Positions 1 through 34,120 of a stretch of 64,000 nt of DNA are shown here, piece after piece. Within the stretch, counting starts at the first letter, position 1. Each line of letters begins with the position of its first letter. Source of the DNA: a phage; assembly GCA_028909515.1 (NCBI GenBank), contig GCA_028909515.1_4811.1; one strand, written 5' to 3'. A program made the position numbers and the translations under genes. The notes under the pieces were generated by a model. The model saw only the letters and a program-made list of their open reading frames with translations, was not told the origin of the DNA and did no database searches.

Positions 1-1332
1 AGGAGGGTTTTGCGTTCCATAAAAATAAGGCTCAGGTCCATTTGGATTCTGAACAGGGTCGCAGACGCAAATCGAGTACCCAAACAAAAGAGCATCAGAC
101 CCTTCAGGCAATTCACGAGTTTGAGTTGATCCAGCGGCAGTCGCCTTCAACTCTATTGAGAAGCTGGTACTTACTCCAGAAGCAGCGGTTGCCGTCTGCT
201 CTACAATCCAGATTCTATACCAATCGCCGCCGATTGCTTTTATGCCACCACGGCTTGATTCCCTTCTTACTCCATCAAATTTTCCTGTAATGAAGTAGCT
301 CAAAGACGGGTCCAAGTTGAACTGTCCGGTGACAGGGTCAAACAGCTTTCCATTACTCGATGCATCACTATTCTCTGTAACAGAAACAGAAGCGACGTTT
401 TCAGAAAGCACCTTTATGTAGAAGCTATAGCAAACGTTAACGCCAGCCTGCGAAGGAAGGGCAATTGACTGTGCGCTTGGATTATTAGCCAAAGAATACA
501 CAGGCTCACCGCTTGAAGCCGTCTTGACGACCCTTACTGCGTTGGCAAAATTCTCTATTGCCTCACCTGGGTAATCGCCACACAACTGTCCATAGTAATC
601 AGGGCCGCCGTACTGTCTGGTGTCGCCGCCGACAAGGCCTGTGCCGGAACCATTCCCCCATGAGTACCAGTCTGGATGCGCCATCCGTGACACGGTGCCT
701 GATACTCCGCTGATGGTCAGCCCGGCGTTGTTGCCATGGCTTAAAAGTATCTGCTTATAATCGTGCTGAATCTCAGTTGACCCCTGCCAGTCGTACAGAA
801 GGAATGAGCCATTGGTCGATTCAGACGAAGACACCGCGCCTTGAGTGTTGTCTGTCACATATGCGTAGCGTGATGAAGAGTAATCCCAAGCTTCTCCACG
901 GTTGAAAATCCACTTAAGCATGCGGTTGATACTTTCGATGCGGCCATCACTTGTGAGCGTCAGATAACGAAGCTTAAGAAGTATGCGCGCTTCTTCGATA
1001 TTCTTTACAACCTTACCGCCAGCACCAAAGAAGTTGCCGCCGATGTTGTCAGCGCCTTCAAAGTTGTCGCGCGTCGGTCCGAACGCCCAGTTGTGTTCAT
1101 AATTGCTTAAGTCCACAAAGTCTCTTGGTATGCAAAGAATGTCGCACCAAATATAAATGCCCATTGCATCACAAGTGTCAATGTTGAAAATGTTGTTGTA
1201 CCAGTCAGTCCAAAACTGATCTTGGTATCTTTCATACCAGTCACTTTTCTTTTGCACCAAAGACGTGATGTTTGGTGCATTGTTCTGCATCCACTTAAGG
1301 TTTTGCAACAGGTTTGTGTCAAACTTTTGCAT
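1..1332 (-). CDS. Structural protein, probable tail fiber or distal baseplate component; only the N-terminal 444 codons are in the window
   Basis: ATG at 1332-1330 preceded by GAGGAA, 4 nt after the stop of the upstream gene. Frame translated by hand stays open to position 1. Gly-rich stretch GNGSGTGLVGG. Product is a guess from position after the baseplate genes. Confidence 0.5.
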   Translation of the reverse strand, partial: MQKFDTNLLQNLKWMQNNAPNITSLVQKKSDWYERYQDQFWTDWYNNIFNIDTCDAMGIYIWCDILCIPRDFVDLSNYEHNWAFGPTRDNFEGADNIGGNFFGAGGKVVKNIEEARILLKLRYLTLTSDGRIESINRMLKWIFNRGEAWDYSSSRYAYVTDNTQGAVSSSESTNGSFLLYDWQGSTEIQHDYKQILLSHGNNAGLTISGVSGTVSRMAHPDWYSWGNGSGTGLVGGDTRQYGGPDYYGQLCGDYPGEAIENFANAVRVVKTASSGEPVYSLANNPSAQSIALPSQAGVNVCYSFYIKVLSENVASVSVTENSDASSNGKLFDPVTGQFNLDPSLSYFITGKFDGVRRESSRGGIKAIGGDWYRIWIVEQTATAASGVSTSFSIELKATAAGSTQTRELPEGSDALLFGYSICVCDPVQNPNGPEPYFYGTQNPP

Positions 1333-1338
1333 AGTTCC

Positions 1339-2610
1339 TCACACAAATTTAACGTTGATAAAGCCGCGCATAGTATTCGCCTTATCCCAAGGATTGGCAA
1401 TCCACTCGCTGCCGTAATCGGATGGATAATTTGGCGCTGCCTGTCCGCTTTTCACTGCTGCAATCTTGCAATCTTTAATATACAAGCCTGGATACTCGCA
1501 AGACACTGCTGAAGCAATTTCAAAAGAAGATTGAGATTGACCTACTGTATATCCTTGCTCACCGTTAAAATTGCCATTGCCGTAATTCAAAACAGCAGCA
1601 ATAATAGATTCAGCGTCGGCGGTCGCGGTGCCTCTTGAAACAGTAATGTCGACATACAAGTCATATATTACTGCAGTGTTGAACTTAACAAAATAAGACA
1701 GTTGTGATTCTTCGTCGACAACTTCTATTCCATCAGGCGAGTTGACTGGATTGCCCTGATTGGTCGCGCCAAAGTCCCACGGCTGGCCGCCCATCTTCGC
1801 TTTGAAAATAGTCTCAGCAAAAACTTGCTTATCGAACGTTCCGCTTGCGCACACCCACACACCGTTAGGCGTTGAAAAGGTGATACCGCGTACCGTTCCA
1901 GGTAATCCCGTGTCGTTCTCCACGACCATCACCGATTCCACGCCGTCGACCGACATGGCACGGGCGCGAATGGCACCAAGCGATGCAATGCCCTGTTGGT
2001 AAAGACGCTTAACGCGAGCGGCCTTTAACGCTCCGTCTCCCATGTATTGCGTGCCTGGTACAGTCGTCGTTGCTGATGTTGAATACGTTCTTGACCATCC
2101 GATGACGTCATAGCCTTGCACCACGGTAAACTCTTCATCAGGCGCAACAGTAAATGAGCCATACTCTTTTGATGCAAGAGTCATGTTGCTTGTCTTGCCA
2201 GTCGAAGTGATTTGAACGTCTTCTAGAACATACCAGTATGTACCGTTTGAATCCGTCAGTAAACTTCCAGCAGGAATATCCAACAGCGGCGTTCCTTCTG
2301 CTGTAATTCCTTTCAGCATCGTGCTGATGTTTTTAGTTCGCTCAATCCCAAGCAATGCCGCGATGGCATCAAGGTATACGCCATACGAATAATTTGGGTT
2401 GATGAGACTTCCCAGCTCGGCGTTGTTCTTCATGACTGAAGTTCTTGCCAAAGTCTCTGTCGCGATTAAGGTGCCTTGCGGTGTCGAGGCATCAACGTCA
2501 AGCCCGACCCCTAGTGACTCAATCCATTCACTTTGAACGTCAGCCAGCAAATCGGCTGTGTCGATGGTTATTACACCAGTGCTTACTATGTAAGAATATT
2601 GTGCACTCAT
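1339..2610 (-). CDS. Baseplate wedge protein (gpJ-like)
   Basis: 423 aa ORF. Called from size and position downstream of the spike-like protein; no motif confirmed. Confidence 0.4.
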   Translation of the reverse strand: MSAQYSYIVSTGVITIDTADLLADVQSEWIESLGVGLDVDASTPQGTLIATETLARTSVMKNNAELGSLINPNYSYGVYLDAIAALLGIERTKNISTMLKGITAEGTPLLDIPAGSLLTDSNGTYWYVLEDVQITSTGKTSNMTLASKEYGSFTVAPDEEFTVVQGYDVIGWSRTYSTSATTTVPGTQYMGDGALKAARVKRLYQQGIASLGAIRARAMSVDGVESVMVVENDTGLPGTVRGITFSTPNGVWVCASGTFDKQVFAETIFKAKMGGQPWDFGATNQGNPVNSPDGIEVVDEESQLSYFVKFNTAVIYDLYVDITVSRGTATADAESIIAAVLNYGNGNFNGEQGYTVGQSQSSFEIASAVSCEYPGLYIKDCKIAAVKSGQAAPNYPSDYGSEWIANPWDKANTMRGFINVKFV

Positions 2611-3359
2611 TCTATCATATCCCCAGTTCTGTTTCCAGGTCCGTTACCTATGTGACCGTGAGTGGATACATTTGTGCCGCCGATTGTTGTGCCAGTCGGA
2701 AGCGTTGCCGTCGTTCCTTCTTTCCCTTCTATACCACCATTGAATGTCGCCTTTCCATTCACTATCAATTGTTGGTCGATAGTGGTAATTGGTGTTTTCA
2801 CGTTTACCCCAGCTGATGCGGTTATGTTTATCGAGTCATCACTTAATGCGATTCGGACAGCGCCGCTGAGTGACTGGATTACCATTGAGCCTGCATCCTC
2901 TCCGCTTATGGTGTATTTTCGGAATACATCCGGTATGAACAGTCCATCAGCGAAAGTTTTCACGCGACCATTGGTAGGCGCGGTCGGCTTCAATTCTTCA
3001 AGGAATGTCGACAACTCGCGGTCGCCAGCGAATATCCAGCCCAAATCACCTTCTTTCAAAGGAAAGTTGACTACGAAGCCGCCGCCGCCGATTGCCAATA
3101 CAGGAATTGACACCAAAGGTTGACGCTCCACTGGTTTATCATCAAGACTTACGAAATGAATAACAGGCTTTATGACTGCTAAATTCTGTTTGCGGTCATA
3201 AGATATTACTTGTGCAGGAATCATGCCGTCAGTGGTATACTTGCCACGGTCCAGCATTCCCTGCAGCGCGGCAAACATACTTGATTTGTCAGTTTGGTTG
3301 GGACTTGTAAGTTGGGTTAACTTTTCTGCCATCATAGACTCCTTATATCTGATCAACAA
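2607..3359 (-). CDS. Baseplate spike or hub protein (gpV/gp138-like)
   Basis: 250 aa ORF overlapping the next gene by 4 nt. Gly-rich core GGGGFVVNF. Assignment from position only. Confidence 0.35.
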   Translation of the reverse strand: MLIRYKESMMAEKLTQLTSPNQTDKSSMFAALQGMLDRGKYTTDGMIPAQVISYDRKQNLAVIKPVIHFVSLDDKPVERQPLVSIPVLAIGGGGFVVNFPLKEGDLGWIFAGDRELSTFLEELKPTAPTNGRVKTFADGLFIPDVFRKYTISGEDAGSMVIQSLSGAVRIALSDDSINITASAGVNVKTPITTIDQQLIVNGKATFNGGIEGKEGTTATLPTGTTIGGTNVSTHGHIGNGPGNRTGDMIE

Positions 3360-3391
3360 TTATAATCTATAAGGAGTCTATAAGCAATATT

Positions 3392-3913
3392 TTAGCGATT
3401 TGACTTTGATTCTTTAATGGCAGCTTCGTTTGAGTAGGCTTCATTAAGTGATTTTGCTATTAGTCCATCAAACATAGCGAATGCATCACGCAATGAATAA
3501 TATTCTTCCAATTCTTTTAACGAAGCAAGACCATTGTTTATTAGGCTTGCGACCATCGGCTCAAGATAATTAGGCTCTACGGTCGGGACGTCGGCCAAGA
3601 ATCTATTTGGAATCTTAGTACCTTTCCAATCACTGAGGAATCCAAAATTGTGCTTCTTCACCGCTTCCATTAGAACTTTCAATACAAGGTTTGGCGGCAA
3701 GTGATTTGGCACACTTTTCACTTCTTCACTGATGGCCTTCTCAGAGTTTAATCTGACTTTAGTTCCGTCATATTTAATAACATGGCATTCACTTAATAAT
3801 TCAAGTGGAGTTAATATGCTTATCGCATCAACCATTTCAAACGCGTCTATTGCGCTGAATTGATGTATTTCATAAGTAACTCCAAAAAGCTCAATTACTT
3901 TATTCTTTCTCAT
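3392..3913 (-). CDS. Tail/baseplate module protein
   Basis: 173 aa ORF in the co-oriented tail gene array. Confidence 0.4.
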   Translation of the reverse strand: MRKNKVIELFGVTYEIHQFSAIDAFEMVDAISILTPLELLSECHVIKYDGTKVRLNSEKAISEEVKSVPNHLPPNLVLKVLMEAVKKHNFGFLSDWKGTKIPNRFLADVPTVEPNYLEPMVASLINNGLASLKELEEYYSLRDAFAMFDGLIAKSLNEAYSNEAAIKESKSNR

Positions 3914-17788: not shown

Positions 17789-18090
17789 ATAGCCGCGCCT
17801 TTATTAGTGTGATACGGATGATACGGATAAAATGAGGCGTATTTTTATCCGTATCGGTGTATAAGCCGCGCTATCACTGGTGTGCTACGGATGATACGGA
17901 TGATACGGATACTTTTCATATATAAGAGTTTATAAAAAAATAAAATTAAATTAGATATATAATTTTAAATTAATTTATTTGAATTCCTATATAGTACGGC
18001 GGCAACGCGTATCATCCGTATCATCCGTAAGATTCTTTTGAAAACAACAACTTACTTGATACGGATGATACGTCATTATACGTATAAAAC
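17789..18090. repeat. Iteron-like locus 1: 9 bp ACGGATGAT repeats in both orientations around an AT-rich core
   Basis: A ~40 bp unit ending in TACGGATGATACGGAT occurs twice as a direct repeat. A 9 bp-stem hairpin lies between the copies. An AT-rich core at 17913-17995 is followed by inverted copies GTATCATCCGTATCATCCG. Confidence 0.6.
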
Positions 18091-30038: not shown

Positions 30039-30253
30039 CTTAGTGCGGCCCTTTCTTTTGCCTGCCGTGCAGGAGTGTACTGCAAATTTACTGTGGGTAC
30101 AAAATAGTACGGTACTGTCTAGGATTTTTTCTTTGAAAAGTTAGTGGACCAAATGTGTCGTATTTTGATTAGTGTACTACAAATTTCATCAAGTACCAAA
30201 ACGCACCAAAAGACCCATGCCATAAAAACCACACGAACGCAATAATCAATCGC

Positions 30254-30338
30254 CGTTACAGTTTCCAGCGTTACAATTCGAAAGCGAATGATTCGAAGCA
30301 TAATAATATGAAGCATAATGATTCGAAAGCGAATGATT
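30254..30338. repeat. Nested direct repeats in non-coding DNA
   Basis: ATTCGAAAGCGAATGATT twice, GAAGCATAAT twice between them, CGTTACA twice just upstream. The 18-mer contains a 5 bp palindrome. Confidence 0.6.
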
Positions 30339-30463
30339 GCGTGTAGGATAATATCGGTGGGGATTATTCTAGATGCATGTAATTTCGCATGCGTACTATT
30401 TTCGGACGAAGGGTCGGCATATTCCTCGTTTTAGTTCGGAACGAAGGGAAAGTTTTGCGCCTT

Positions 30464-30537
30464 TATAAAACAACGACTTACGCGACCCTCCCTAACGGTC
30501 CGATATAGGTGTCTATATAAAACAACGACTTACGCGA
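30464..30537. repeat. Perfect 22 bp direct repeat TATAAAACAACGACTTACGCGA, two copies
   Basis: Copies at 30464-30485 and 30516-30537. Confidence 0.7.
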
Positions 30538-30662
30538 TGTTCTCCATTTAACGTAATACCCGTTATGCGAACTAAGGCGCATCTCGGCGAAGATTATGCG
30601 ACGACGAAGGGAAGGATAAAGGAGTTTTCGCGGAGAAGCGCATCGGGATAGGGACGAAGAAA

Positions 30663-30681
30663 AGCCGCGACTAAGCGCGGC
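30663..30681 (-). terminator. Weak terminator-like hairpin after small acidic gene A
   Basis: GCCGCG, 6 nt loop, CGCGGC, followed on the minus strand by TTTTCTTCG. Confidence 0.3.
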
Positions 30682-30701
30682 CTATTAGTAACGGAAGGGT
30701 A

Positions 30702-30992
30702 TTATAAGGAGACGATTTTAAAATAAGTTACTTCGCCGCCAAGTTGCGGGACCGCGATATATTCGCCGCCGATTTCGGTAATCGTATAGACGAAGCCGTT
30801 GATGGTTACGCGGTAGGATACTACGTCCTCGTCGCGATACTTGTAAAGGTCGAGGAAGTTGATCGGCTCATAAATAGACTCGATAGTCGCGTCTACGTTA
30901 GAGAGATAAACGCTCTCTAAGGTTTCGCCAAATACGTTAGAGTTTTCGGAAGTCTCGACGCGAGCGGAACGGATAGCGGATAAAGTAATCAT
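30702..30992 (-). CDS. Small acidic protein, paralog A of a three-member family
   Basis: 96 aa. AGGAG site. Blocks shared with B and C, for example SVYLSNVDATIE with EVYAANVDQTIE. Confidence 0.55.
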   Translation of the reverse strand: MITLSAIRSARVETSENSNVFGETLESVYLSNVDATIESIYEPINFLDLYKYRDEDVVSYRVTINGFVYTITEIGGEYIAVPQLGGEVTYFKIVSL

Positions 30993-31016
30993 AATATTCT
31001 CCTAGTTAGTCGGGAG

Positions 31017-31037
31017 GGTAGCGACCTATTCGCTACC
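31017..31037 (-). promoter_or_regulatory. Leader hairpin in the 5' UTR of gene A
   Basis: On the transcribed strand: GGTAGCG, loop AATAGGT, CGCTACC. Lies between the -10 element and the ribosome-binding site. Confidence 0.5.
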
Positions 31038-31058
31038 TCATCCCCTCTCGATATAAAC

Positions 31059-31088
31059 ATTATAGTCTTAGTGTACGAATAAGTAAAG
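31059..31088 (-). promoter_or_regulatory. Sigma70-like promoter of gene A
   Basis: Transcribed strand reads GTGCTTTACTT...TTCGTACACT...TATAAT then GTTTATATCGAGAGG. Shared with the promoters of B and C. Confidence 0.5.
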
Positions 31089-31097
31089 CACTTTTCG

Positions 31098-31399
31098 TTA
31101 TTCTGCGATAAAATATTTATAAGCTTTATCGCCTTCTATATCGAGATACTCGACGATAATTAACGCTTCGCCGCGCGGCGTAACGGTTTCGATGAGGGTT
31201 ACGGTTTCGTCGTCGGCCCGAATGAAGCGGATGGCGCTACGTTCGGCGTACTTAATCTCGTCGAAGGAAAGGCCGACGAAGGCGACCGCGCGGACTTTAA
31301 TTCCGCTCCACTCTAGTTCCGCGTTAACGGCTTTAAGAAGAGAAGCGACGGTTAAGCGGTCTTCGTCGTAAGTAAGAAGAGAAGAAATTAAAGTAGCCA
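31098..31399 (-). CDS. Small acidic protein, paralog C
   Basis: ATG MATLISSLL with a GGGAG site, chosen over the longer track ORF (31098-31457). Confidence 0.5.
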
Positions 31400-31457
31400 T
31401 AATAAAACTCCCGATGCTAGTAGAAGGAAGGGCCATCACCCGTCTCGATATAAACAA

Positions 31458-31485
31458 GTATACGCGAGTGTACGAAGAAGTAAAG
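31458..31485 (-). promoter_or_regulatory. Sigma70-like promoter of gene C
   Basis: Transcribed strand reads CTTTACTTCTTCGTACACT...TATACT then TGTTTATATCGAGACGG. Back to back with the promoter of B. Confidence 0.45.
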
Positions 31486-31528
31486 AAAAAAAGATAAAAT
31501 AATTTATCTCATTTTTATCGAAAAAGTG

Positions 31529-31557
31529 CTTTACTTTTTTCTACACTATATTATAAT
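31529..31557 (+). promoter_or_regulatory. Sigma70-like promoter of gene B
   Basis: GTGCTTTACTTTTTTCTACACT...TATAAT then GTACTCATATCGGGACGG. Confidence 0.5.
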
Positions 31558-31580
31558 GTACTCATATCGGGACGGGATGA

Positions 31581-31601
31581 GTTAACGAATAGGTCGTTAA
31601 C
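31581..31601 (+). promoter_or_regulatory. Leader hairpin in the 5' UTR of gene B
   Basis: GTTAACG, loop AATAGGT, CGTTAAC. Same loop as the gene A hairpin; two stem positions differ and both are compensated. Confidence 0.5.
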
Positions 31602-31625
31602 GCCTCTCCCAACTAGGAGTTTAAA

Positions 31626-31910
31626 ATGGCTATTCTTAACGTTTCTTCTATTCGCAACGCTATCGTCGAGAACTACGGCGTAAAACAAATTTTATCCGAA
31701 GTCTACGCCGCGAACGTAGACCAAACTATCGAGGCGGGTGGGGTAACGGTCGCCGAGGCTTTTAAACTTTACGCGGCGCTACCGGAATCGGACCGCGAAG
31801 CCTTCGAAGTAAACGTTAACGGATACTTCTTCGAAGCGGTCGAAATCGGTAACATCTTACTCGTTATGGGCGAAGAAGAATTTGAGACCTTCTCCCTCGT
31901 CGAAGCGTAA
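31626..31910 (+). CDS. Small acidic protein, paralog B
   Basis: 94 aa. AGGAG site. All 7 Leu codons are non-CTG and both Gln codons are CAA. Confidence 0.55.
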   Translation: MAILNVSSIRNAIVENYGVKQILSEVYAANVDQTIEAGGVTVAEAFKLYAALPESDREAFEVNVNGYFFEAVEIGNILLVMGEEEFETFSLVEA

Positions 31911-31990
31911 GAGAGGATTTTTAGAGCGTCGTGCGCGGCGCTTTAATAAAATTCTTTCGCGCCTAGCGCCCTAACAAATAGGAGTTTATT

Positions 31991-32617
31991 ATGGTTAGCT
32001 TAAATCGTTTCTCGACTAGCGGCGACGTTATCGCAACTAAGACCGCCGACCTCGTTGCATTTTATAATGCAAATTCCGGTTCGAAGCCGATTAAGAAATT
32101 TGCGGACCGCCGGACCGCCGAGACTCGCGTAATCGCGTTAATCGAGTCCTTAAACGCGCTCGATGAGCCGTCCAACGAATCGCCCATTCCCGACGCGAAG
32201 CCGCGCGAGGAAGTGTCCAGCGATGTAAAAACGCATAAGGCGCGCGCGGTCGTTAAAAAGGCCGAGCCGACCCAGGAAGAACTCGACGCGATGAGCGATG
32301 AAGAGTATGAAGCCTTCGTTAAGAGCGGCTTAAACGATAGTGCGAATTGCGTAGTGCAAAATGGAACTCCTTCCCATCGCCGTTCGAATAGCGAAGGTAT
32401 TGCAAAAAGTTGGGATAATAAGGAAGTGGCGCAAAAGCGTCTTACTCGTAACGGTGTTATGGTCGAGGGTGTAGGCGAGTTCAAATCGGTCCGCGTAGCG
32501 TTCGCCGCGCTGGGCTTACCGGATAGCAAGCATATTCGCTTCCGCATGAAGCTTAAAGAAGCTGGACGCTTAAACTTCGAGTTCGGCAACAAGTCCTACA
32601 CCTTCCAGATTATCTAA
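31991..32617 (+). CDS. Hypothetical protein with island-type codon usage
   Basis: 208 aa. AGGAG site. CpG-rich codons. Contains two copies of the ATAGTGC(A/G)AAT DNA motif in different reading frames. Confidence 0.5.
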   Translation: MVSLNRFSTSGDVIATKTADLVAFYNANSGSKPIKKFADRRTAETRVIALIESLNALDEPSNESPIPDAKPREEVSSDVKTHKARAVVKKAEPTQEELDAMSDEEYEAFVKSGLNDSANCVVQNGTPSHRRSNSEGIAKSWDNKEVAQKRLTRNGVMVEGVGEFKSVRVAFAALGLPDSKHIRFRMKLKEAGRLNFEFGNKSYTFQII

Positions 32618-33545
32618 TCGAATGGCGGCCCTTCGGGGTCGCTTTTCATAGTGCAAATTGGTGGATTATGAATACTCTTATTCTCATCGCTACGTTGTCC
32701 ATCGGAAGTGGTCGCACCTTATCCCTTTATGACCATAGTGCAAATTGCGCTTACCCTACGCGCGTTGCGGCGATAGTTAATAGTGCAAATAAGATGCTAT
32801 TCGAGACTTGCTGGCGGGTCGATAACGAGAAAGGTCGGGTAGTCTTAGGTTATAGTGCAAATCTGCTGGTGGAGTCGTTCGATTGGACGGCTGAAGGTCG
32901 TAAATTGTTACGTAAAGTGACTAAAAGATGACTTATAATAATACACTTTCTAACGCGTTTATGGTTGCAACCTTCCCCGTCGTATTACCGACGGCCCTAG
33001 AAGTGGAGAAAATGTGTTCTAGGGCCGTTTTATAGTGCAAATTGGCTAGTGGCGGGAGAATTGCTCGCCTTCTTTGGCCGCCTCTCCAAAATCCTTGTAG
33101 AAATCGTCCATAGAACGGCCCATTTTACTATTGCCGTTTTCATCAATCATCGTGATGCCGTAGATGATATTCAGTTCACGAATAGCATTAAGCTTGGCTG
33201 ACGCCGCGACTTCTGGATCACGCACAAGCTTGACCAAATTGTGAATTGCACCTTTTACGCTCCACAAATCCTTGAGTGGCATCTCTTCCATACGCTTTTT
33301 GAAGCGCATTTTGTAGTATGGGTTGCGTTGCGCGCAAAGGATTCGCTGGCCAGTGTAGTTATCCGTTGCAACTTCCATTCCAAATACTAGTGCAAAAGCT
33401 GCGCGCATGTCATGGCCCTGAATAACAAGGTCAATGAACTCATCGAATAAAGCCTGATTGTGCTCTGCAAATCGCGGGTCTTCAAAGTCTTCAGGCATCG
33501 CTACATAATCTTGACTCATAGTGCAAAATCCCATAGTGCAAATTA
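32336..33545 (+). repeat. Same-orientation array of an 11 bp motif, ATAGTGCAAAT, at least 8 copies
   Basis: Copies near 32336 (variant), 32351 (variant), 32648, 32735, 32780, 32852, 33032, 33518 (variant) and 33534. Present in coding and non-coding DNA and in different frames. Confidence 0.6.
33046..33534 (-). CDS. Hypothetical early protein
   Basis: 162 aa. The start region overlaps two copies of the 11 bp motif; an alternative ATG lies at 33519. Confidence 0.45.
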   Translation of the reverse strand: MGFCTMSQDYVAMPEDFEDPRFAEHNQALFDEFIDLVIQGHDMRAAFALVFGMEVATDNYTGQRILCAQRNPYYKMRFKKRMEEMPLKDLWSVKGAIHNLVKLVRDPEVAASAKLNAIRELNIIYGITMIDENGNSKMGRSMDDFYKDFGEAAKEGEQFSRH

Positions 33546-33744
33546 ATAGTGTGAATTATACAATGGATGGACATTATATTCAAGTGCAGATTGATGTTCA
33601 TTATGGCTATAAACGTACACAAATCATAGTGCTGATAGAGTTGCGGACCGTGGTGCGTGGTGTACTGTTTGATACGTATAAAAGAAATCCATCCCTTTCG
33701 CCGCTTGCTATGCAAATCAATGACTTAGCCGCTGCTGGCTGGTT

Positions 33745-34120
33745 GAAGCGTATCATGACGTATCATCCGTATTGCCGCAAGTCTTTGTTTTTACTTATAT
33801 CTTACGGATGATACGTATAAATATAAGTTTAGTATAAGTATGAGGATGTAGAAAAAAATTAATTTAAATTAATTCAAAATGGAGTTAATTAATTTTCTGG
33901 AATTCTATATATATTATGTTTGCACCCGTATCATCCGTATCAGCGTATTTTTCCTTATAAATCAATAGCCCAATGATACGTCATGATACGTATGAATGAC
34001 TGCCTTCGCGGCAAAACAATCCCAGTGTATACCAACAATCCCAGGCGCGGCGCACCACAGGGCCACGGTACAATATCCTGTGAAGAGGTGACTCTCATTT
34101 CCTTATACGTATCATCATGG
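33745..34120. repeat. Iteron-like locus 2: GATACG-type repeats in both orientations around an AT-rich core
   Basis: GTATCATCCGTAT, ACGGATGATACG and GATACGTCATGATACG flank an AT-rich stretch at 33840-33920. Homologous to the locus at 17789-18090. Confidence 0.55.

Follow-up and report, generated by a model that had tools for sequence, protein, structure and literature searches.

The three small acidic protein genes, A, B and C, found between positions 30,702 and 31,910 of the window (the whole stretch of 64,000 nucleotides that was analysed) on balance probably form an immediate-early ("pre-early-like") module of a Wifcevirus, driven by the host polymerase and devoted to host takeover or anti-defence. 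This reading is based on their location in a terminal repeat near a DNA end, on their conserved host-type promoters, on the variable content of the slot behind one of these promoters, and on the restriction phenotype of these phages. The sequence-only reading had proposed a function in host takeover or counter-defence for what it took to be three paralogs; the same four points provide circumstantial support for this proposal, but no fold or family match was obtained and only two of the genes are paralogs. The genes are embedded in a 1.8-kb island from which the dinucleotides TG and CA have been largely eliminated. We found no earlier description of such an extreme, conserved and region-specific purge of one dinucleotide pair.

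The A/B/C locus lies in the terminal repeat of a Wifcevirus

The source of the 64-kb window is a Wifcevirus, i.e., a myovirus of E. coli. Positions 30300-33000 showed 92 to 96% identity to 29 Wifcevirus genomes (about 68 kb; myoviruses of E. coli and Shigella), in which every gene under the match is annotated as "hypothetical protein". When the ends of the phage WFC record were mapped on the window, its last 600 nt aligned with positions 30722-30128 and its first 600 nt with positions 33880-33280, the physical right end of WFC corresponding to position 30128 and its physical left end to position 33880. This mapping indicates a direct terminal repeat of about 3.75 kb (30128-33880), collapsed to a single copy in the assembly. 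Korf et al. described a repeat of about 3.7 kb at both ends of WFC. For phage Mansfield, the PhageTerm annotation gives a direct terminal repeat of 3673 bp (1-3673), with an inner boundary near window position 30209, about 80 bp further in.

The A/B/C locus is inside this repeat, and about 260 bp separate the start of the TG/CA-free island from one of the physical ends of the virion DNA. Moving inward from the right end (30128), one finds a 15-bp tandem repeat, non-coding repeats, a terminator, genes A and C (both transcribed toward the end) and a gap between divergent promoters, followed by gene B, a gene encoding a 208-aa protein, a gene encoding an 87-aa protein and the gene of the small terminase subunit. 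The non-coding, TG/CA-poor stretch between the DNA end and the terminator (30392-30664) contains four repeats of the GACGAAGGG type and two copies of the 25-nt repeat CTWTATAAAACAACGACTTACGCGA. These repeats are a candidate injection stop signal, as in the two-step entry of T5-like phages, though the resemblance is only suggestive. The terminator, a hairpin followed by a T-run on the minus strand (30662-30683), stands at the end of the C-A transcription unit and is also annotated as such in Mansfield and WFC.

Three near-identical promoters of the host type

The claim that each gene is preceded by a near-identical promoter was borne out: the sequence TTTACTT-N5-TACACT occurs exactly three times in the 64-kb window, each time at this locus. 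If up to two mismatches were allowed, there were 7 matches in comparison with 1.3 expected, a number that was reached in none of 100 shuffles. PA (31059-31087, minus strand) consists of TTTACT and TATAAT separated by 17 nt containing GTACACT; PC (31457-31484, minus strand) of TTTACT and TATACT separated by 16 nt containing GTACACT; and PB (31530-31557, plus strand) of TTTACT and TATAAT separated by 16 nt containing CTACACT. All three resemble sigma-70 promoters, with hexamers spaced within the range of 16 to 18 nt and scores of 9 to 10 out of 12. Exactly these three promoters were present in 10 of the 10 Wifcevirus loci examined. The -35 hexamer TTTACT corresponds to a version of the consensus TTGACA without TG and CA. 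The CA in the spacer has been kept amid otherwise CA-free DNA, which suggests that it has a specific function. The idea that TACACT could be the -10 hexamer of a second, overlapping promoter was rejected, no plausible -35 hexamer being found for it.

An element with the sequence TTATATCGAGA is conserved around the predicted transcription start, at 31046-31056 for PA and at 31443-31453 for PC (both on the minus strand), with a variant, TCATATCGGGA, at 31562-31572 on the plus strand for PB. This start-region element is also found 3' of promoters in the Serratia phage MTx and in the metagenomic contig L146, which represents an uncultured third lineage; GTGC is found 5' of PA and PB only. The 19-nt core of PC (CTTTACTTCTTCGTACACT) is identical in L146, and promoters related to these, with CTTTACTT and with CAC in the spacer, are present in the Serratia Myosmarvirus phages. 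A scan with the promoter core gave matches in Wifcevirus contigs only.

PC and PB are divergent, with a gap of 45 nt between them. PC and PA face the DNA end, up to the terminator, while PB faces gene B and then the 208-aa gene. PB would thus drive B and presumably also the 208-aa and 87-aa genes. Depending on the isolate, the same PB with its leader is followed by B, by an acidic protein of 104 aa that is unrelated to B and takes its place (B', the WFC variant), or by no small gene. One extra gene each is present in RCIP0363 and in Ro157lw, and in Ro157lw the 208-aa gene comes directly 3' of PB.

Two paralogs and one unrelated small acidic protein

The three small acidic genes announced by the sequence-only reading all exist, with the coordinates given for A and B; according to the ORF listing, C ends at 31400 and not at 31399. 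Gene A (30702-30992, minus strand), with AGGAG 6 to 7 nt 5' of its ATG, encodes a protein of 96 aa with a pI of 4.23. It occurs as two alleles that share 63% identity and have an invariant N-terminus of 23 residues in common. Gene C (31098-31400, minus strand) encodes a protein of 100 aa (pI 4.57) and gene B (31626-31910, plus strand) one of 94 aa (pI 4.05). The net charge of the three proteins ranges from -7 to -12, and is -15 for the WFC variant.

The view that all three are paralogs had to be narrowed. A and B are homologous, both by BLASTP (33% identity, E 5e-7) and by hhalign (93% probability, E 3e-7), while no alignment of C with either A or B was obtained by BLASTP or by profile comparison. 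The locus therefore comprises two paralogs and one small acidic protein unrelated to them in sequence. We also considered a superfamily that would unite A and B with C, B' and the small proteins of Myosmarvirus, and rejected it, because profile comparison does not join them. The resemblance of A, B and C is explained in part by a constraint at the DNA level, as indicated by their residue bias: His, Gln, Cys, Trp and Met together make up 2.0% of the proteins encoded in the island versus 10.2% of those encoded in the rest of the window.

An exhaustive HMM search in 1.8 billion representative proteins yielded just one further member of the A family, P0040 (103 aa). In L146, the homologue of A is adjoined by a homologue of C (125 aa), their identity to A and C being 36% and 30%, respectively. 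The exchangeable PB slot, filled with B, with B' or with nothing, and the two alleles of A with their invariant N-terminus are typical of genes involved in conflicts with the host.

The 208-aa gene found 3' of B (31991-32617, plus strand) is TG/CA-poor only in its first ~200 nt, and is kept in Pbunavirus, Myosmarvirus and other phages. Its product matched phrog_4730, which has no assigned function, and no defence-related model or solved structure.

The statement that no fold could be assigned to A, B and C still holds. No significant match was found with Pfam, PHROG, PADLOC or PDB profiles, even with widened alignments, and the Pfam search yielded nothing but noise at E<=1. No homologue of T5 A1, A2 or dmp was found among the three proteins with PHROG and Pfam, these same searches recognised no nuclease or A1/A2-like protein at the locus, and there was no sequence or profile match with the Ocr/ArdA family (Pfam, PDB). 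The AlphaFold2 models of A (with B as sole alignment partner; pLDDT 46.8) and of C alone (pLDDT 46.3) were unusable; at this low confidence (pLDDT 46-47), they consisted mostly of beta-strands rather than helices.

Hairpins in the leaders of A and B

Folding predicted a hairpin of 8 bp in the 5' UTR of gene A (GGTAGCGA-ATAGG-TCGCTACC; 31017-31037, minus strand) and another one, also of 8 bp, in the 5' UTR of gene B (GTTAACGA-ATAGG-TCGTTAAC; 31581-31601, plus strand), with the same loop and compensatory changes in the stem. No such hairpin was predicted in the leader of C. In the window, the motif CGAATAGGTCG is present only in the leaders of A and B. It is also found once in each of the Myosmarvirus genomes examined (SMP, MyoSmar and MTx), 5' of a gene encoding an acidic protein of 104 aa. 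In an alignment of the four distinct versions of the hairpin, both sides had changed in 5 of the 8 base pairs and 96.9% of the cells were paired, which was equalled by no shuffle. Rfam assigned no family to the leader and gave a single chance-level match (E=2) elsewhere in the region. A scan of further viral contigs for the motif, amounting to about 120 loci, was not fruitful, as all matches beyond Wifcevirus and MyoSmar were due to chance and had neither hairpin nor island.

An island depleted of TG and CA

The TG/CA-free island extends over 1.8 kb, from a sharp left edge at 30391 to about 32200, the right edge fading over positions 32030-32340. It contains 62 TG and CA in 1810 nt, i.e., 3.4 per 100 nt versus 14.2 per 100 nt in the whole window, some of those that are left being at essential promoter positions. 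The observed/expected ratio is about 0.28 for TG and for CA, while it amounts to 2.0-2.2 for CpG and 1.2-1.4 for TpA. Depletion affects each of the eight trinucleotides in which TG or CA occurs, most of all CAG/CTG (1 observed versus 62 expected). The depletion spans genes on both strands and non-coding DNA, and continues past the terminator. No other 200-nt window of the 64 kb has 10 or fewer TG and CA.

The island was present in all 10 Wifcevirus loci, including their alternative cassettes (2.9 per 100 nt in B' and 2.6 per 100 nt in the extra gene of RCIP0363). It was also found in the Serratia Myosmarvirus phages SMP, MyoSmar and MTx, and, with 1.9 per 100 nt, in L146, its length being about 1.8 kb in each of the three lineages. 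In MyoSmar, it starts about 200 bp from the end defined by PhageTerm. No island was observed in the 8-kb loci surrounding the homologue of the 208-aa protein in one Salmonella phage and one Pbunavirus.

Further evidence on the origin of the island was obtained from 232 single-base differences between Wifcevirus islands. Changes creating TG or CA reached about half of the mutational opportunity, accounting for 22.5% of the transitions versus 41.3% possible (P=5e-6) and for 8.7% of the transversions versus 24.8% possible (P=3e-5), while changes destroying TG or CA were over-represented. This bias indicates that the signature is maintained in place and is not a leftover of horizontal transfer.

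Restriction sites in the terminal repeat

According to the BASEL paper, EcoP1_I is the only one of the restriction systems tested to which Wifceviruses are not resistant, and no protection mechanism is known for them. EcoCFT_II, with a similar number of sites as EcoP1_I, does not restrict them. The site table of that paper lists, for Bas99, 5 sites for EcoKI, 3 for EcoCFT_I, 38 for EcoRI, 8 for EcoRV, 92 for EcoCFT_II and 89 for EcoP1_I. Recounting the sites on the complete genomes of Bas99 and Bas100 reproduced the numbers of the table for EcoRI, EcoRV and EcoP1_I; Bas99 has 19 EcoRI sites, and the value of 38 is explained by the counting of both orientations. We inferred that EcoCFT_II recognises CACAG, as this was the sole 5-mer whose numbers agreed with the published ones for both phages, 92 for Bas99 and 87 for Bas100.

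The terminal repeats of Bas98-101 contain no site for EcoRI, EcoRV or EcoCFT_I, 0-1 site for EcoCFT_II (taken as CACAG) and 0-1 site for EcoKI, in comparison with 5-7 sites for EcoP1_I (AGACC, both orientations). The pattern is the same in the repeat of the window, just outside both boundaries of which there are CACAG and EcoRI sites. T5-like phages are reported to be resistant when restriction sites lie outside their terminal repeats, and restriction of Autographiviridae is reported to follow a leading-region rule. The Wifcevirus plating data fit the T5-like rule, in which only sites in the repeat count, mainly through the contrast between AGACC and CACAG, the latter being a deduced site; this contrast alone is informative, because less than one site is expected by chance in the repeat for EcoRI, EcoRV, EcoKI and EcoCFT_I.

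Bas99 and Bas101 have one EcoKI site within the island, made by the sequence 5' of PA, and are nevertheless reported to be resistant, which fits the rule only if one site is insufficient. Type I enzymes cut linear DNA with a single site poorly. We also considered that a TG/CA-specific DNA modification could cause the resistance, and rejected this idea, since EcoRI sites contain no TG or CA and are still not restricted.

Discussion

If the A/B/C locus is an immediate-early module, as we think is somewhat more probable than not, it would be part of the first DNA to enter the cell and would be transcribed by the host RNA polymerase within seconds from three strong promoters, the transcription starts of PA, PB and PC being expected within TTATATCG. 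As small acidic effectors, A, B and C would disarm the defences of the host or seize control of it while the remaining genome is not yet exposed, in the manner of the pre-early region of T5. Through the avoidance of TG and CA, the unprotected leader would be poorly recognised by nucleases that read sequence, be they the restriction enzymes of the host or an activity by which the phage itself degrades host DNA, and the hairpins in the leaders of A and B may stabilise or regulate the early mRNAs. An argument against the T5-like aspect of this reading is that just one of the two physical DNA ends has the island nearby.

A more specific proposal, which is possible but which we would hold only tentatively, is that of a "stealth leader": the leading ~1.8 kb, purged of TG and CA and kept so in at least three lineages, would enable naked first-entering DNA to escape a nuclease or sensor of short TG/CA motifs, and the acidic proteins encoded in this leader would provide a T5-like shield of the remaining genome against type I, II and III restriction. 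The TG/CA depletion is absent from the first-entering DNA of T5, and the analogy with this phage does therefore not explain the island. Enterobacterial type III enzymes have CAG-containing sites such as CAGCAG and CAGAG, and avoidance of TG and CA removes these as well as CACAG, the site deduced here for EcoCFT_II. Yet it eliminates just about half of the possible 5-6-mers, which means that the selective gain per dinucleotide would be weak.

An alternative that we consider unlikely, though not negligible, is that A, B and C are early factors acting in host shut-off, host DNA degradation or completion of DNA entry (the job of A1 and A2 in T5), and that the island spares the first-entering DNA from a loosely specific nuclease of the phage itself, which would be active at a time when no more than the leader has entered the cell. 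Selection strong enough to alter both amino-acid usage and the -35 hexamer is easier to reconcile with a lethal effect of each site than with the avoidance of scattered restriction sites, the evidence from position and promoters is the same for this explanation as for the immediate-early takeover or anti-defence module, and very short latent periods have been reported for Wifceviruses. However, no nuclease or A1/A2-like protein was recognised with PHROG and Pfam, the 62 remaining TG and CA, including those at essential promoter positions, have persisted, and T5 DNA lacks the signature. It is less probable still that at least one of the three proteins is a DNA mimic with anti-restriction activity, of the Ocr or ArdA type. 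Their small size, their acidity (-7 to -12, and -15 in the WFC variant), their location at the front of the genome and the resistance of Wifceviruses to type I systems would agree with this, but no Pfam family was matched, the charge is considerably smaller than in Ocr, the low-confidence models are mostly beta-strand rather than helix, and EcoRI is also resisted, while no DNA mimic is known to act against type II enzymes.

That the locus merely contains ordinary orphan early genes, their look-alike proteins and odd composition being due to a cassette recently acquired by horizontal transfer from a source of unusual composition, appears very improbable. The restriction of the homologues to few phage lineages and the variable content of the slot would be expected in this case. 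Against it, cassettes that are not homologous have the same composition, as have non-coding DNA and three lineages between which the identity of the proteins is 30-36% or nil, the single-base differences show that selection against TG and CA continues within Wifcevirus, and the A and C families have remained adjacent across lineages. Finally, there is hardly any reason to believe that the avoidance acts on RNA rather than DNA, e.g., to escape a host endoribonuclease. It is true that the island essentially coincides with the early transcribed region and that mRNA-cutting toxins with short recognition sites exist; but TG and CA are equally depleted (0.28 each), even in Myosmarvirus, where all genes of the island are on one strand, and the depletion extends through non-coding DNA past the terminator.

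The immediate-early module that we favour offers a candidate answer to the puzzle raised by the BASEL study, i.e., how Wifceviruses resist all tested restriction systems but EcoP1_I without known DNA protection. It singles out A, B, C and the gene encoding the 208-aa protein as candidate genes, and the terminal repeat as the candidate vulnerable DNA. If the island does reflect evasion of nucleases, it would amount to a novel viral strategy for concealing the DNA that is first to enter. It may also provide a sequence signature with which leading regions and loci of anti-defence could be recognised in other phages, and the conserved promoter with its plug-in slot could possibly be used in the engineering of therapeutic E. 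coli phages.

Comparison with known systems

One of the closest parallels is the pre-early region of T5 and BF23, in which early genes are also contained in a long direct terminal repeat behind strong, divergent promoters of the host type, and which goes along with resistance to type I, II and III restriction unless sites are present in the repeat. Differences are that the repeat is 3.75 kb long in Wifcevirus versus about 10 kb in T5 and BF23, that no homologues of A1, A2 or dmp were found, that T5 has no TG/CA-free island, and that Wifcevirus is a myovirus related to Pbunavirus.

The host-takeover module of Bacillus phage SPO1 is a cluster of genes encoding small proteins in the terminal redundancy, with a strong early promoter for each gene or for a few genes and with strong ribosome-binding sites. 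The Wifcevirus locus resembles it in that genes of small proteins with their own strong promoters are located in a terminal repeat, but there is no sequence relationship, the Wifcevirus genes are far fewer, the two phages have different hosts and SPO1 is not known to have a compositional island. As for T7-like leading regions (Ocr; early region of Murciavirus), there was no evidence at the Wifcevirus locus for the transcription-driven DNA entry of these phages, the Wifcevirus genes have no homology to Ocr, and avoidance in T7-like phages concerns specific motifs rather than a whole dinucleotide. What the two would have in common is that variable anti-defence genes are carried on the DNA that is injected first and that restriction depends on the sites present there.

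Genes of the terminal repeat and the island

The conserved core of the operon behind PB, the promoter of the small acidic protein gene B, is a 208-aa protein (phrog_4730), encoded downstream of B at window 31991-32617, with homologues at loci L016-L018. This protein is kept in 356 phage records, about 295 of which are Pseudomonas phages, mostly Pbunavirus genomes, the others including Serratia, Salmonella and Xanthomonas phages. A small terminase subunit gene (window 33046-33534), annotated as such in the Wifcevirus Mansfield on the basis of an HHpred match to the small terminase subunit of phage Sf6, is located inside the direct terminal repeat and is therefore present in two copies per virion genome.

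In some isolates, the island, a stretch of TG/CA-poor DNA within the repeat, holds additional small genes. That of RCIP0363 encodes 50 aa and lies between the small acidic protein genes A and C (L009, 1808-1960; 2.6 TG+CA per 100 nt), while Ro157lw, which lacks B entirely, carries a 69-aa gene downstream of A (L015, 1409-1618; 6.2 TG+CA per 100 nt) that is possibly a recent arrival. In the non-coding part of the island (window 30392-30664) there are four repeats of the GACGAAGGG type, and CTWTATAAAACAACGACTTACGCGA occurs twice, 52 nt apart. An Rfam search of this part gave no match, and the annotation of its short ORFs differs from record to record.

Repeats near the DNA ends

Just beyond the TG/CA-poor island, 140-230 bp away from the position inferred for the right physical end, we found four copies of a tandem repeat with a 15-bp period, of the GAAGCATAATGATTC and GAAAGCGAATGATTC types (window 30267-30354). 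They are candidate binding sites, which could serve an end-recognition, packaging or injection-stop function. Another motif, GATACGGATGATACG, occurs in ten copies versus 1.2 expected when up to three mismatches are allowed. It forms two clusters in AT-rich intergenic DNA, at window 17811-18072 and 33759-33941, the second of which lies across the genome's physical left end. Window 18017-18082 is also matched by 67 nt near the left end of phage WFC. GATACGGATGATACG may act as an iteron or bind a regulator.

Restriction sites

For EcoCFT_II, a type III system, the BASEL paper shows the recognition site in a figure only. Judging from the published site counts (92 in Bas99 and 87 in Bas100) and the genomes of these two phages (L020-L023), this site is probably CACAG. 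A site for the type I system EcoKI (AAC-N6-GTGC) is present inside the island in Bas99 and Bas101 (position 1790 of L010 and L012, about window 31089), because of one added A in a run upstream of PA, the promoter of A. The window lacks it, since the spacing there is AAC-N5-GTGC.

Comparison with phage T5

The first-step-transfer DNA of T5 (L145, 1-14000) showed no TG/CA depletion, unlike the Wifcevirus island. Its CpG observed/expected ratio was mostly 1.1-1.5 and fell to 0.5-0.9 just past the repeat, a milder compositional boundary, which is different in kind from that of the Wifcevirus island.
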